Of a DNA stretch of 64,000 nt, positions 1-24,384 are shown in pieces (position 1 is the stretch's first letter; the number at the start of each line of letters is the position of its first letter). The stretch is from the NCBI GenBank assembly GCA_965217775.1, contig CBDCJH010000002.1:1568001-1632000 (forward strand), written 5' to 3'. Source of the stretch: Acidobacteriota bacterium (GTDB taxonomy: Bacteria; Acidobacteriota; UBA6911; RPQK01; JAJDTT01). Both the position numbers and the translations under genes were made by a program. Below the pieces are notes generated by a model that was given only the letters and a program-made list of their open reading frames with translations, was not told the DNA's origin and ran no database searches.

Positions 1-206
1 TCTCTGGATTCGGTTCGGCTCCATACCCTCCACCAGAGCAGCAGCCCACCTCTCAAACCGGAATTTATCGATGCTGGCAAGCTCCTGAGCGTGTGTGATG
101 GTATGGGGAAGGCCAATGTCTTGGGTGTGTTCCCAACGGATTCATCCGGGACATCCTCCCGCATGACTTCAAGGTGGTCTCCAAAGCTCAGTCGATTTTC
201 GTTCAA
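1..206 (-). pseudogene. Internally deleted DNA methyltransferase/endonuclease-fusion passenger gene of the IS1595 element (runs off window)
   Basis: TTG at 206 overlaps the transposase stop (TTGA). 206-135 reads LNENRLSFGDHLEVMREDVPDESV, like N4/N6-MTase N-termini but with no DPPF following. In another frame 90-1 reads AQELASIDKFRFERWAAALVEGMEPNRIQR, like the C-terminal nuclease-type domain of such fusions. Confidence 0.55.
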
Positions 207-1153
207 CCCACCAAATCCTTGTAACGCAGCCGCTTTCCCACCATCCGGTCAGCGACCAGGGCCATTTGATCCAACGTGTCCATGCGCCTTAGGTTGTGAC
301 GTGCGGCAAACTCTCCAACGTATCGGTCGGTGTGCTGTTCCGAGAAGTGGTGAAAGGTTCCGTGGTAACTCCGCTTCAACATCGACCAGAACGATTCGGC
401 TCCGTTGGTGTGGCAGTTGCCTTTGACGTACTCCTGAAGAGAATGCTTGACCGTCTCGTGATTGACAAGCCGGCCGTAAGAGGTTGAATCGTCGGTGTAG
501 ATCTTGGCATCTTCTCCCACGTGCTCCAAGACGAAACGGGAGAGGGTTTCAGACTTGGTGTCAGGGACGACTCGGGCCGACACTTGGTTGGAGGGGCGAT
601 CTTTGACGGCAGCCACGGCCGTCTTTCCAACGGCTCCACGTCCCTCCAGTTTGGCGCGTTTGGCCTTTGGCATATTCTTCCGCTTTCCGCCGAGATACGC
701 CTCGTCAGCCTCGACCGGGCCGGAGAACAGGGCCATTCCAGTCAGGTTCAGACCTTTCCGTATCCGGTGAGCAAGGTGCCAAGCCGTCTTCTGTGTTACG
801 TCCAGGTCACGATGCAGCTTCATGGAGGAAACGCTCTTGAGGCTGGTAGTAAGGAGGTAGGTCGCAAGCAACCAAGTCTGATAGCCGAGTTTGGAGGACT
901 GCATAACCGTCCCGACCCGGACGCTGAACCGCTTGCCGCAATCGCGGCAACGATACGGCATGGAAGGATGCTTGGCTCCGGTCTGGACGTTGGTGGAGCC
1001 GCAATGGACGCAACAGACTTCCTCCGGCCACCGCCGCTTTATGAACCATTCCTCAGCGGCTTTATCGTCGGGAAATCTCTTGAAGAATCCGCGCAGTGAA
1101 AGTCCCTCTCGGAACGCCTTGCCGGGTGCCTTGTTCCGTGTCTCGTAACTCAT
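203..1153 (-). CDS. IS1595-family DDE transposase
   Basis: Zn ribbon CVHC...CRDC, HTH SSMKLHRDLDVTQKTAW, catalytic VEADEAYLGG / IYTDD / HTNGAESFWSMLKR; ATG at 1153 preceded by AGGAGG. Confidence 0.95.
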   Translation of the reverse strand: MSYETRNKAPGKAFREGLSLRGFFKRFPDDKAAEEWFIKRRWPEEVCCVHCGSTNVQTGAKHPSMPYRCRDCGKRFSVRVGTVMQSSKLGYQTWLLATYLLTTSLKSVSSMKLHRDLDVTQKTAWHLAHRIRKGLNLTGMALFSGPVEADEAYLGGKRKNMPKAKRAKLEGRGAVGKTAVAAVKDRPSNQVSARVVPDTKSETLSRFVLEHVGEDAKIYTDDSTSYGRLVNHETVKHSLQEYVKGNCHTNGAESFWSMLKRSYHGTFHHFSEQHTDRYVGEFAARHNLRRMDTLDQMALVADRMVGKRLRYKDLVG

Positions 1154-1282
1154 TGTATCCTCCTGACTTACAAGACATATTATATAGGAAAGTACCGGGA
1201 TTGTCAACCCCTACGGGCAACCTTTTCGGCACTTTCGTATATAATCCCCATAATCTGAATGACAACATTTTATTCAAGAAGT

Positions 1283-21016: not shown

Positions 21017-21760
21017 TCAGTCGGACGCGGACCAGTCGGGTGCCGGACCCCAGCGCTCCGGCCAATCGACAGCGGCCAGATCGGCGGTGAGCGGATGCCA
21101 CAGATCGATCTTCTGCCTCATGACGCCCAGGTTGTTGGGCATGTCGAATTTGCTCGGAAGAGGCTCCACCCGGCCGGGAACCCCCTTGACGAAGCTCTTC
21201 CTGGGAACGTCACGGTGCACCACCGCTCCCGCCGCGATGAAGCTGCCCTCCCCGATGGTGATCCCGGGAAGAATGGTGCAACCGCCGCCGATGACCACTT
21301 CGTCTTCGATGGTGGCGCCGCAGGGCGTGGGCATGACGTCGTATCGGCAAGGCTCTCGATCGTTCAGGAAGATGACGCCCGGTCCCACGAAAACGTGGTC
21401 GCCGAACCAGGTCCGGGTGGGGATATAGGTGTGGGCCATGACCCGGACCCCGTTTCCCATGCGGACGATTCCTTCCACCACCGAGTGGTTGAAGATGGTG
21501 CAGTAGTTCCCGATCTCGACCTTGGCCCGGATGACCGCGTAGAGACCGGTCTGGAAGTAGTCGCCGATCCGGGTGTCGCCATAGATGACGGTCCCTTGCC
21601 GCAGGATCCCGTGGCGGCCGACCCGGGCCGGACCGCAGTCCCGGTGATAGCGAAAACCGACGGTGACTTCGGGCTCGATGAAGGTGCCCTCACCGATGAC
21701 GGCGTTCTCGAGCTGGGTCTCCCGGCCGGTGCGCTGATGGTGGGTCTGACCGTCGCTCAT
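21017..21760 (-). CDS. Hexapeptide-repeat acyltransferase
   Basis: LbH repeats, VFVGPGVIFLND, ILPGITIGEGSFIAAGAVV..DVP...GVP; GGAGGA RBS. Confidence 0.88.
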   Translation of the reverse strand: MSDGQTHHQRTGRETQLENAVIGEGTFIEPEVTVGFRYHRDCGPARVGRHGILRQGTVIYGDTRIGDYFQTGLYAVIRAKVEIGNYCTIFNHSVVEGIVRMGNGVRVMAHTYIPTRTWFGDHVFVGPGVIFLNDREPCRYDVMPTPCGATIEDEVVIGGGCTILPGITIGEGSFIAAGAVVHRDVPRKSFVKGVPGRVEPLPSKFDMPNNLGVMRQKIDLWHPLTADLAAVDWPERWGPAPDWSASD

Positions 21761-21793
21761 GCGGGTTCCTTCCTCCGAACGGACTTATGGAAT

Positions 21794-21895
21794 GGGGCTT
21801 ATATTCCTAAGTGCCCTTGGCATACAGTTCTGGCACCACGCTTTCCCCAACGAGATACGTTCCGGTACCCAGGGCAAGAACCCCAGCCCTGTGAA
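21794..21895 (-). ncRNA. Putative TnpB omegaRNA (reRNA) scaffold overlapping the tnpB 3' end
   Basis: Minus strand: CAGGGC/GCCCTG stem whose loop GTTCT can pseudoknot with downstream AGAAC; GGTACC..ACG/CGT GGTGCC stem; position typical of TnpB guide RNAs. Boundaries approximate. Confidence 0.6.
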
Positions 21896-22982
21896 TGTTC
21901 AGGGCGGCATTGTGGTCCCTGTCCATTCTAAGTCCGCAGGCCCTGCACCGGAAGGTTTCGCTCCGCCCTGGATCGTGGCGGGCGCCGCACCGGTGGCAGT
22001 CCTGCGATGTATATGCGGGATTCACTTCTACGAACTCCCGACCGGCCCATTCTGCCTTATACTGGAGTTGATTCCGCAGAAGCCCCCATGATTGCGTCAT
22101 TATTTCTCGATTCAGCCCCTTCTTCTTCGAGCCCTTCGTTACCATCCCTTGGATGTTCAGCTTCTCCACAGCGATCAGACCGTGCTCACGAATGATCCTG
22201 CTGGAGAGACGATGGCAGGCATTACGGTTTCGGACCGCTTCCCGGTGACGGAGCCGAGATAGCTGTACGATCCGCTTCCGTCTGGTCTTGGAAGTCTTCG
22301 TGCACCTGGAGACCTTTCTCTGCTGCTTTCGGATCCCCGCCCAGTCCCGTCGATTCCGTTCGATCCTCTCACCCGTGGACAGCACCGCTCGCTTGCGGAC
22401 TCCCAGGTCGATCCCTACCGAAGACTCGCATTTCGGTAGCGGCGGCTTCTCCACCTCGTAGGTCAGGTCCACATACACCCGGTTCGGCTTGCGGACGATC
22501 CGCATCACCTTCAACGGGCATCCGTCCGGCAACGGCCGGGACGGAAAGATCCGGATCGTCGGGAAGCCCTTGGGCCGGATGGCGTAGCCCCGAGCCCGCT
22601 TCTTCACCATCGTCGCCTTGGGGTCGACGACGTCGATGGTCTCCATCCTCGCCAGGGGCCGGAACCGAGGATACCCCGGCTTCTCCCCCGCCTTGCAGCG
22701 ACGGAAGAACGCCTTGAAGGCCCGGTCCAACCGCATCAACATCCCACGCTCCGCCTTGACCGCCACCGACCCGAGCCCCTCCGGATCGTCCTTCCTCTGG
22801 GAGGTCAACCCCTTCATCTGATCGTACAGGGTCACACCGTGTTCCTCGGATTCCCAGGCCGTCCTGCGTTCCTCCAGTGCAGCGTTGTACAGCCGATTCA
22901 GGATGGACCTCACCCGGTCCAACCGCCGGATTCCACCCTTGGACAGCTTGGCTCTGCACTGGATAGTTGCGTGGACTTTCAT
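21807..22982 (-). CDS. tnpB: RNA-guided endonuclease TnpB
   Basis: RLYNAALEER, KPGYPRF, RuvC GIDLG / AVEKLNIQGM / DRDHNAALNI, Zn finger TSQDCHRCG...CRACG. Confidence 0.95.
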   Translation of the reverse strand: MKVHATIQCRAKLSKGGIRRLDRVRSILNRLYNAALEERRTAWESEEHGVTLYDQMKGLTSQRKDDPEGLGSVAVKAERGMLMRLDRAFKAFFRRCKAGEKPGYPRFRPLARMETIDVVDPKATMVKKRARGYAIRPKGFPTIRIFPSRPLPDGCPLKVMRIVRKPNRVYVDLTYEVEKPPLPKCESSVGIDLGVRKRAVLSTGERIERNRRDWAGIRKQQRKVSRCTKTSKTRRKRIVQLSRLRHREAVRNRNACHRLSSRIIREHGLIAVEKLNIQGMVTKGSKKKGLNREIMTQSWGLLRNQLQYKAEWAGREFVEVNPAYTSQDCHRCGARHDPGRSETFRCRACGLRMDRDHNAALNIHRAGVLALGTGTYLVGESVVPELYAKGT

Positions 22983-23145
22983 GGTAGGAATCGTAACCCA
23001 TCAGCCTGAATTCTCGGCACTTACATATATAATCCCCTATAGAATCCTGTCGGCTCCGGACATTCTGTCCTTCCCGGCGGAAGGACGCAACGAGGAGACT
23101 TGACCAGGGTTCTGGGGTAGCCGTTCCCAAGCATGCATCACAGGA

Positions 23146-24384
23146 TCAATGGCGTCTGCGCACCGGAAGAGCCGTCCGAGCCTCATGTTCGCGGATCATC
23201 TGCCCGTGAGTGACGATCTTTGCAAGGTAGCTTTCGGTGTCGAAGTCCAGAAAACGGTCCGGGGAGAACTCGGCAGCGTCGATGCTGGTATTTCCATCCA
23301 CCATGTATTCCGCCAGGAGGAACCCGGCGACGGGATGGTAGCCGAAGCCGCCGGAGTTGAAGGTGACGGCCAGATAGAGTCCCGGCAAGGCGTCCACCGG
23401 GCCGATATTGGGCAGAAAGTCCAGGGCGTAGCTCACCAGACCCACGCGATGGTAGTCGATCTCGACCCCTTCGATCAGGGGGAGCCGGTCCCGAACCGCC
23501 TCCTGGATGAAGGGCAGGGAACGGGGATCGGGGACGAGCTCGGTGAGCCGGAAGTCGGGTCCGGGCCGCTCGATCTGCACCGCCTCGTGGGCGCCGGTTC
23601 CCAGCAGGACGCGATCATCCTCCGTGGGACGGTAATAGACGCCCTTGGAATCGTCGTTGGTGGCCGGAAGCCGGGGCGGATGGCCCAAGGGCATGGTGAC
23701 CCATCGTTCGTGAACGAAATTGCGCACCGGCAGCGGCTGACCCGCCTCGGCCATCAGCGAATTGGCCCAGGCATTCACGGTGCAGACCACCGAGTCTGCC
23801 CGCAGTTCACCTGATTCCCGGGTCCCAACGCCCGTGACCCGTCCGCCTTCGATCAGGAACTCCTCGATGGTCACGCCTTCCCGGATTTCCACGCCCATCT
23901 CCCGGACCTTGGCGCTGAGCGCGGGAAGATAGCGGTCCGGTTCGCTGTAACCGCCGCGCAGGTCCAGCACGCCGTACTCGTCGTCACGAATCCGAAGATC
24001 GGGGAATCGCTCCTCTATCTGTTGCCGGCGGAGCACCAGAAACCGGGCTCCCGCACGCCGGTGCATCGGGTGGAGCCGGCGGGCCCGTTCGAACTGCTGG
24101 GAGTCCAGCAGATTCAGGCAACCCACCTGGTGAAAGTCGTAGTTCTCCAGGATCTTGTCGAACCGCTCGAAGATGTCGAAGGTGATTCCTCGCGCCCGGC
24201 TGGCCCCCTCGGTGGCCATCATCATGGTGTTGATGGCCCCGGACCGGCTGCTGGAACCGTCGCCCACACGGCCCTTGTCCAGGAGCAGGATCTTCCGAAC
24301 ACCCTTGTCGGCCAGATGGAACGAGGTGCTCAATCCGGCGATCCCGGCGCCGACGATGATCACCGACTGTGACGTGTTCGCCAT
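23146..24384 (-). CDS. FAD-dependent oxidoreductase (DAO/sarcosine oxidase beta family)
   Basis: IVGAGIAG, GSSSRSGA, PNIGPV, SGGFG. Confidence 0.88.
   Translation of the reverse strand: MANTSQSVIIVGAGIAGLSTSFHLADKGVRKILLLDKGRVGDGSSSRSGAINTMMMATEGASRARGITFDIFERFDKILENYDFHQVGCLNLLDSQQFERARRLHPMHRRAGARFLVLRRQQIEERFPDLRIRDDEYGVLDLRGGYSEPDRYLPALSAKVREMGVEIREGVTIEEFLIEGGRVTGVGTRESGELRADSVVCTVNAWANSLMAEAGQPLPVRNFVHERWVTMPLGHPPRLPATNDDSKGVYYRPTEDDRVLLGTGAHEAVQIERPGPDFRLTELVPDPRSLPFIQEAVRDRLPLIEGVEIDYHRVGLVSYALDFLPNIGPVDALPGLYLAVTFNSGGFGYHPVAGFLLAEYMVDGNTSIDAAEFSPDRFLDFDTESYLAKIVTHGQMIREHEARTALPVRRRH

Follow-up and report, generated by a model that had tools for sequence, protein, structure and literature searches.

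How does tnpB, the gene of an RNA-guided nuclease, come to be the only gene between the inverted ends of a DDE-type transposon? The question is raised by a 1244-bp unit at positions 21794–23037 of the window, a 64,000-nucleotide stretch of an Acidobacteriota genome (GenBank assembly GCA_965217775.1, contig CBDCJH010000002.1, positions 1,568,001 to 1,632,000 of the forward strand). The source genome, G000 below, is a 6.43-Mb assembly of two contigs, C2 being the one that contains the window. An initial annotation, made from the letters of the window, had read the unit as a non-autonomous IS1595–TnpB element, and this reading is supported here by 13 genomic copies, their target-site duplications (TSDs), an empty allele and an autonomous partner with near-identical ends, mobilisation in trans being the step that we infer. 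To the overall explanation, a non-autonomous IS1595-family cassette carrying tnpB and an omegaRNA, we assign a probability of about 0.8; it includes a homing proposal whose parts are held far more tentatively and are graded separately below.

A tnpB gene between IS1595-type ends

The unit occupies the intergenic gap between a 247-aa open reading frame (ORF) starting at 21760 and a 412-aa ORF ending at 23146, and in an ORF scan tnpB was the only long gene inside it. It is bounded by terminal inverted repeats (TIRs) with 22-nt arms (21794–21815 and 23016–23037) that are 82% complementary, and beyond these by the 8-mers TATGGAAT and TATAGAAT, which are identical at 7/8 positions. The TIR-bounded unit with tnpB alone and its imperfect flanking repeats were therefore recovered as the initial annotation had described them, as was its claim that the terminus on the upstream side of tnpB resembles that of an IS1595 element at the start of the window; there it lies upstream of the transposase gene, and its orientation with respect to the gene is the same in both cases (24/26 bases match for the consensus cassette). 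A degenerate TIR pattern occurred at three sites in the window (1228–1249, 21794 and 23037) and at none in 100 shuffles.

Within the unit, 55 nt upstream of the tnpB ORF and 13 nt downstream of its stop codon are all that lies outside the gene. The stop codon is inside the TIR of the right end (RE), 13 bp from the element end and within the <250 bp that characterises DDE-associated TnpBs; the end upstream of tnpB is the left end (LE). No transposase gene is present in the cassette, which in this respect departs from the IS1595 family, where elements have a DDE_Tnp_IS1595 transposase of their own, and its 22–26-bp TIRs and 8-bp TSDs set it apart from IS200/IS605 elements of the IS1341 group.

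The cassette is multicopy and polymorphic

DNA searches and blastn with the 1244-bp unit identified 13 cassettes in G000, 12 at 93–100% identity and one 86% variant, with a few relics besides. All 13 have the termini GGGG...CCCC, and the 8-bp TSDs are perfect, and all different, in 11/13, the window copy having 7/8 matching bases and one copy none that match. Further copies with these ends and different TSDs, which the initial annotation had suggested looking for, thus exist. The tnpB ORF is intact (391–393 aa) in 11/13 copies. The two damaged copies are at C2:4647309–4648714 and C2:2358592–2359856: one carries an insertion of ~160 bp near the tnpB 3' end, leaving a 376-aa ORF with a new tail, and the other is 21 bp longer, with its ORF cut to 297 aa. 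The copy with unmatched flanks (C2:1186780–1188023; AATGGATT vs AAACATAT) is a full-length cassette, as expected if recombination between copies had rearranged the chromosome. A 466-bp relic with cassette-type ends (C2:4150407–4150872) has the same flanks (TAGTGTGGTA / CAAGCTACCT) as a full-length cassette of a related genome (locus L031 of G001); the two represent one old, orthologous insertion, which later underwent internal deletion in G000.

Evidence from natural populations came from contigs of four public runs, X1, X11, X3 (a metatranscriptome) and X9, aligned to positions 21200–23600; the public runs containing the stretch include sponge metagenome libraries. In three of the four (X1, X11 and X3) a single contig per run connects 21789 with 23042, whereas the contigs of X9 cover the element without its flanks and are uninformative on the empty site. 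The joint omits 1252 bp, that is, the 1244-bp unit plus one 8-mer, so that one TATGGAAT remains, with no inverted repeat, which excludes an empty allele that retains the TIRs. The X3 contigs cover element and empty allele alike. A second joint, from 22058 to 22702, occurred in one contig at depth 3.7 with a side of 27 and was set aside as weak. The cassette therefore moves as a whole unit between IS1595-type TIRs, generates 8-bp TSDs in AT-rich 8-mers and is polymorphic in nature. The empty site with a single 8-mer had been anticipated by the initial annotation, and neither of the outcomes that it had named as refuting, namely ends of the IS605 type lying within the TIRs, or TIRs left behind in the empty allele, was seen. 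We hold with high confidence that the unit is a non-autonomous tnpB cassette of the IS1595 type that has been active recently.

An autonomous IS1595 with matching ends

The initial annotation had assigned an IS1595 transposase to positions 203–1153, and this ORF indeed matches Pfam DDE_Tnp_IS1595 (1.6e-38) and the NCBIfam IS1595 family transposase (177 bits; cut-off 75). A search of G000 with the TIR core returned 57 matches and revealed, beyond the cassette ends, five copies of a 1760–1762-bp autonomous IS1595, four of which are 99.3–100% identical among themselves. Their TIRs are identical or 1–2 bases apart and all five have perfect, different 8-bp TSDs; together with five sites in G001, perfect 8-bp TSDs are found at 10/10 autonomous IS1595 sites. 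Besides the transposase gene, the autonomous element has about 700 bp of further sequence, without tnpB, and its similarity to the cassette is limited to ~27 bp at the ends, where the consensus cassette is identical to the TIR of the 1762-bp IS1595 at 24/26 (LE) and 21/26 (RE) positions. This pairing recurs in G001, where 8 copies of an IS1595 at 99% identity accompany a TnpB cassette that is 94% identical and shares the TIRs.

The ~700 bp downstream of the transposase gene (window 1–203 plus 513 bp upstream of the window; C2:1567488–1568203) include a 110-aa ORF matching NA-iREase1 (PF22722, 2.2e-7) and Mrr_cat (2.2e-4), which may, to go by these domain matches, be a restriction-endonuclease-like passenger or the remnant of one.

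We consider it very likely that the cassette is mobilised in trans by an IS1595 DDE transposase. In the mechanism that we propose, the 1762-bp IS1595 would supply the transposase, and the cassette would be a mobile insertion cassette with an IS605-derived tnpB and its omegaRNA as sole cargo. A composite element with both genes, suggested by the initial annotation, was not found: an IS1595 transposase gene lies within 2.5–3 kb of tnpB at 0/80 genome and 0/80 metagenome loci, so that the adjoining transposase gene seen in some DDE-associated TnpB elements has no IS1595-type counterpart at any of the 160. For the other TIR subfamilies of the cassette (see below), a search for autonomous partners gave a TIR pair at 1/8 transposase loci, and this pair matched no cassette subfamily.

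Another IS1595-like transposase, rather than that of the 1762-bp element, might move the cassette. G000 contains two more IS1595-like elements, at C2:1021965–1023591 (TSD AAATTTTT) and C2:3648353–3649883, with differing inner TIR sequences, and G001 gave 10 further IS1595-like matches at 40–67% identity. However, the TIRs of the two other G000 elements diverge more from those of the cassette past base 12, and the 1762-bp element is both the best TIR match and a companion of this cassette subfamily in G000 and G001; we judge such a substitution improbable.

An omegaRNA-like structure that uses the right-end TIR

An alignment of the last 240 nt of 14 elements revealed two adjacent hairpins in which 99.4% of cells are paired, with 8/22 pairs compensatory; none of 500 shuffles scored as high, and slid controls gave 35–45% pairing. 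In the folds of 4/5 subfamilies, a conserved CTGT(R)... stretch and the inner half of the RE TIR pair to form a terminal hairpin, which is retained in spite of sequence differences between the repeats of the subfamilies; the minimum-energy structure of the window copy has another fold. Moreover, hairpin 1 has the loop GGGGTT, to which the final six bases of the element (AAGCCCC) are complementary, and in the subfamily with ends GGGAATT.../...AATTCCC this loop is GGGAAT. In the candidate pseudoknot so formed, 96.4% of cells are paired and 2/6 pairs change on both sides. A pseudoknot adjoining the guide is a known TnpB feature according to the part of Yoon et al. (2023; PMC10711439) compared here. 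Because the candidate pseudoknot uses the element tip, the scaffold would run to the last base and the guide would come from the flank.

Modelled in silico, the last ~100 nt thus appear to encode a conserved, covarying RNA whose terminal hairpin and candidate pseudoknot use the RE TIR, so that the end bound by the transposase would double as the 3' terminus of the scaffold of the guide RNA. The position of this predicted structure, at the 3' end of the gene and reaching the element end, is that of a TnpB omegaRNA.

TnpB is conserved and its clade tracks the TIRs

The cassette protein matches Pfam OrfB_IS605 (1.1e-17) and Cas12f1-like_TNB (3e-26) and NCBIfam guided_TnpB (215.5 bits; cut-off 100), and residues 28–375 align to ISDra2 TnpB (8BF8/8EXA) with an E-value of 4.5e-32. 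The segments GIDLG, AVEKL and DRDHNAALNI align to GVDVG, GTEHL and DRDENAALNI of ISDra2, stretches that hold the D-E-D catalytic residues, and both CxxC pairs are present, in agreement with the catalytic triad and zinc finger of the initial annotation. Comparison of five subfamily representatives gave, for the body of tnpB, ratios of nonsynonymous to synonymous substitution (dN/dS) of 0.11–0.22 at dS 0.39–1.46, which indicates in silico that purifying selection maintains TnpB. Beyond the RuvC-III motif, the final ~29 codons differ, with dS 0.18–0.56 and omega 0.6–2.7, and the position of the stop codon varies between subfamilies; the low dS and raised omega of this tail fit constraint as nucleic acid rather than as protein.

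A scan of the genome collection returned 239 relatives. Those at 69–94% identity are all from metagenome-assembled genomes (MAGs) of Acidobacteriota, five besides G000, one of them labelled Aminicenantes; the next relative, from a SAR202 MAG, is 45% identical and the remainder are at ≤37%. The metagenome scan found no close relative, the best being 46% identical. Both ends could be placed at 14 loci of relatives, which fall into five TIR subfamilies with units of 1228–1379 bp, plus one 649-bp deletion derivative. The 8-bp TSDs are perfect at 10/14, match at 7/8 positions in one and are absent from three (L024, L027 and L031). In a maximum-likelihood tree of 26 TnpBs (12 TIR-bound and 14 others from the best matches), the 12 TIR-bound proteins are monophyletic with support 100/99, with the SAR202 protein as sister, so that the clade tracks the TIRs, which the initial annotation had put forward as a check; long branches leave the deeper placement unsure. 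Y1 TnpA lies directly upstream of tnpB at L041 and L048, two of the 12 loci whose neighbours were scanned and both in the other clade.

Three relatives deserve separate description. The SAR202 TnpB lies in a TIR-bounded unit of ~1382 bp (L037:2881–4262; G006 C99:2215–3595 and C182:497–1878) with ends unrelated to those of the cassette (GAGACGATTTCACAAAT) and a 7-bp direct repeat, TGTGTAT; at least two pairs of ends occur in that genome, and a search for a partner transposase of the element found none. The Rhodoblastus TnpB on the next branch out (37% identical; L046:2871–4182) lies between inverted repeats matching at 21/22 positions (GGTAGAGTCTCAGTTTGAAATC), with no visible TSD, and may represent another DDE-type capture. 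Finally, L029:2935–4184 (G003) and L038:2945–3593 (G001), which belong to different TIR subfamilies, occupy one orthologous site in the same orientation: their flanks are 85–89% identical over 1.5 kb and each has its own, internally identical TSD (AAACGAAA vs AAACCCAA), which suggests independent insertions at one hot spot.

These data bear on whether an IS1341-type solo tnpB merely landed in an IS1595 miniature inverted-repeat transposable element (MITE) and is now a passive, decaying passenger, its ends and nuclease being functionally unrelated. The lack of any transposase–tnpB composite would suit such a history, as would the finding that the nearest relatives without TIRs are canonical IS605 elements with Y1 TnpA (the L041 and L048 loci above). 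Against it, the low dN/dS holds across five subfamilies that all keep TIRs, 11/13 ORFs are intact, the 55 nt upstream and 13 nt past the stop are too short for IS605 ends, the TIR takes part in the RNA hairpin and pseudoknot, which change along with it, and Y1_Tnp gives only three weak matches in G000 (22–39 bits), none beside a cassette. We regard the passive-passenger history as a poor explanation. A nested insertion of tnpB into a MITE was rejected on the grounds of purifying selection, intact ORFs, lack of room for IS605 ends and the TIR-using RNA. Domestication of TnpB as a TldR-like RNA-guided repressor, or for another host function, is extremely improbable, given intact RuvC residues and a gene that resides in a multicopy, polymorphic mobile unit rather than at a fixed host locus.

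A one-sided flank motif and a homing proposal

To compare insertion sites of the IS1595-type cassette, we oriented them by tnpB and reconstructed the empty sites at 24 loci, 13 in G000 and 11 in relatives with a TSD. On the tnpB-upstream side, G precedes the TSD (position −1) in 23/24 sites, the first TSD base is A in 24/24, and bases 2–3 are A/T. With one of the two orthologous sites (L029/L038) dropped, the counts over 23 distinct sites are G in 15 at −2 and in 22 at −1, A in 23 at TSD base 1, and A/T in 23 at base 2 and in 22 at base 3; the first base after the TSD, the mirror of −1, is C in nine and carries no signal. Read from the opposite side, the motif is present at 5/24 sites. In autonomous IS1595 copies, which served as control, G|A occurs at 2/10 sites in the transposase orientation and at 3/10 in the other (23/24 vs 2/10, Fisher's test, p = 2e-5), and across the genome G before A has a frequency of 0.41. 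Since the TIRs are nearly symmetrical in several subfamilies, an orientation-specific flank signal is hard to attribute to the transposase alone.

The one-sided (G)G|AWW could still be a target preference of the transposase–end complex, set for example by asymmetric subterminal sequences, with TnpB uninvolved. IS1595 targets are AT-rich, with A at base 1 or T at base 8 in 8/10 autonomous TSDs; LE and RE of the window subfamily differ at TIR base 5 and past base 22; and AAAC starts 8/24 TSDs, which, with one orthologous site struck by two subfamilies, suggests strong site preference. We nonetheless consider this origin of the motif unlikely: autonomous copies with near-identical TIRs have G|A at just 2/10 forward and 3/10 reverse sites, the motif is kept in subfamilies with almost symmetrical TIRs (20–22 of 22 positions in the L021 and L022 types), and the mirror position, described as base 8 = C, gives no signal.

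In canonical TnpB systems, the empty site has its transposon-associated motif (TAM) in the left-end flank, and the right-end flank is the guide. By analogy, the guide of the cassette would be transcribed from the flank beyond the RE (either the TSD together with the flank, or the flank starting at TSD base 4), and TnpB would recognise a TAM-like 5'-(G)GAWW spanning the left flank and first TSD bases of the empty site. The occupied site, with CCCC before the TSD at the RE, would escape cutting; the empty allele would be cut, and recombination would restore or fix the insertion. Homing at empty alleles of this kind would explain why surviving insertions show the motif on the tnpB-upstream side only. 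Fanzors provide a parallel, their 5' TSD belonging to the TAM and their 3' TSD to the scaffold, as stated in the part of a recent review compared here (PMC13565253). A flank-encoded guide, a (G)GAWW TAM and cutting of empty alleles together form a possibility to which we would give slightly under an even chance. More tentative is the wider proposal that TnpB homing serves a TSD-making DDE transposon in bacteria, with an IS1595 end built into the omegaRNA, as terminal hairpin and as pseudoknot partner, and only insertions with the motif on the tnpB-upstream side being fixed or retained.

Several observations weigh against the overall explanation. On mobilisation, the 1762-bp IS1595 shares G000 with the two other IS1595-like elements described above, and in another genome with five cassettes (G002; L022, L025, L026, L028 and L034) the sole good IS1595 transposase match is broken, the gene being interrupted by a stop and in two pieces; the G002 cassettes may be stranded. 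On the RNA, the pseudoknot covariation comes from a single lineage (L029/L035), and 3/14 rows break the pair at column 156; an Rfam scan of 21500–23300 (E up to 10) returned four chance-level matches, all below gathering scores; a promoter and terminator scan returned no hit, and so no sigma-70-like promoter, on the tnpB strand; and the X3 RNA data are contigs, which show neither RNA ends nor strand and could include DNA carry-over. On the motif, the IS1595 control consists of 10 sites only (five from G000 and five of the eight in G001, the other three being unresolved and dropped); the TSD-less L024, L027 and L031, left out of the count, have G at −1 in 2/3 and A at base 1 in 0/3; and L029 and L038 at one orthologous site leave at most 23 distinct target sites. 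On homing, cut-and-paste DDE transposition already leaves a break at the donor site, which makes a homing benefit less obvious, a point raised in the section of PMC13565253 compared here.

Features of the cassette and of the autonomous IS1595 in the window (window positions; C2, contig of the window)
Feature	Position	Strand	Basis or remark
TSD copy, tnpB-3' (RE) side	21786..21793	.	TATGGAAT; same 8-mer kept once in the empty allele
RE TIR, holds the tnpB stop codon	21794..21819	-	end position common to the 12 close copies and the 86% variant
tnpB, 391 aa, intact RuvC D-E-D and zinc finger	21807..22982	-	Pfam, NCBIfam, ISDra2 alignment
LE TIR, upstream of tnpB	23012..23037	+	consensus copy 24/26 identical to autonomous IS1595 TIR
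TSD copy, tnpB-5' (LE) side	23038..23045	.	TATAGAAT; one change vs TATGGAAT
Candidate TAM-like motif 5'-GGATT (consensus (G)G|AWW)	23043..23047	-	LE flank and first TSD bases; inferred
omegaRNA-like scaffold, supported part	21794..21891	-	covariation; hairpins and candidate pseudoknot
Hairpin 1	21870-21891	-	alignment fold
Hairpin 2	21832-21869	-	alignment fold
Terminal hairpin using the inner TIR	21794-21831	-	subfamily folds
Candidate pseudoknot	loop 21879-21884 with tip 21794-21799	-	complementarity
Candidate guide-encoding flank (TSD and 12 nt beyond RE)	21774..21793	-	from TnpB biology and pseudoknot position
Autonomous IS1595, 1762 bp	1..1249	-	cut by window start; 513 bp more upstream (C2:1567488-1569249)
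IS1595-family DDE transposase, 316 aa	203..1153	-	Pfam, NCBIfam
Autonomous IS1595 TIR (1224-1249) and TSD ATAATCTG (1250-1257)	1224..1257	.	sequence match

Comparison with known systems

The general idea of DDE-associated, trans-mobilised TnpBs is already in print, which bears on the reservation of the initial annotation that it could not verify the element to be undescribed. The main text of Altae-Tran et al. (2023; PMC10691335) reports six DDE-associated TnpB branches (DDE-1 to DDE-6) bounded by inverted terminal repeats. It also reports solo TnpBs whose ends resemble those of elements with a transposase, implying mobilisation in trans. IS630 alone is named there as a partner, and IS1595 and ISXO2 have no occurrence in that text; the clade described here may be one of the branches listed in its supplements. 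A 2026 review (PMC13565253), in the part compared, gives ISL2, IS630 and IS1031 as TnpB-associated DDE families. Full-text literature searches, IS1595 passengers included, returned no description of an association of TnpB with IS1595 or ISXO2: no paper returned for TnpB and IS1595 had both in its title or abstract, one of these papers lists them only as separate annotations, and none was returned for TnpB with ISXO2.

The present case adds clean evidence and a TAM prediction that can be tested. The cassette is a compact bacterial case, recently active, with 13 copies, a segregating empty allele and a separate autonomous partner; its five diverged subfamilies provide covariation data, and its one-sided flank motif translates into a concrete prediction of the TAM. 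Found in a sponge-associated Acidobacteriota genome, the cassette provides a bacterial model for the role of such nucleases in this class of cut-and-paste transposon. The role of TnpB and Fanzor for cut-and-paste, TSD-making transposons is an open question raised in the portion of PMC13565253 considered.

The cassette can be set beside several known kinds of element. Mobile insertion cassettes and MITEs are non-autonomous elements with insertion-sequence ends, and the unit resembles them in its IS-type TIRs, lack of transposase, TSD length of the autonomous element and many copies; it differs in having an RNA-guided nuclease as cargo and a predicted RNA scaffold overlapping the TIR. IS1595 elements may carry passenger genes, and with the family as characterised in ISfinder the system shares the DDE_Tnp_IS1595 transposase of the partner, GGGG-start TIRs and 8-bp AT-rich TSDs, whereas the cassette itself encodes no transposase. 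Like the IS1341 group of IS200/IS605, it has tnpB as sole gene and an omegaRNA-like structure that extends over the gene's 3' end, but IS605-type elements, as characterised in the part of PMC13565253 compared, are without TIRs and TSD, and the cassette has both. With DDE-1 to DDE-6, as presented in the main text of PMC10691335, it has in common a TnpB inside inverted terminal repeats, a 3' end near the transposon end and solo forms that would be mobilised in trans; here, unlike there, the partner insertion sequence lacks tnpB and no composite element was found among the loci searched.

The eukaryotic relatives of the prokaryotic IS1595 family form the Merlin superfamily, and the cassette bears on the origin of Fanzor-like associations. 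As far as the part of PMC10711439 compared here extends, Fanzor and Fanzor2* likewise combine a TnpB-family nuclease with a cut-and-paste element, TIR bases with a guide-RNA scaffold and the TSD with the logic of TAM and scaffold. The cassette differs from them in being bacterial, with a compact ISDra2-like TnpB, a TSD of 8 bp and variable sequence vs a short fixed one, and a pseudoknot that has apparently been kept.

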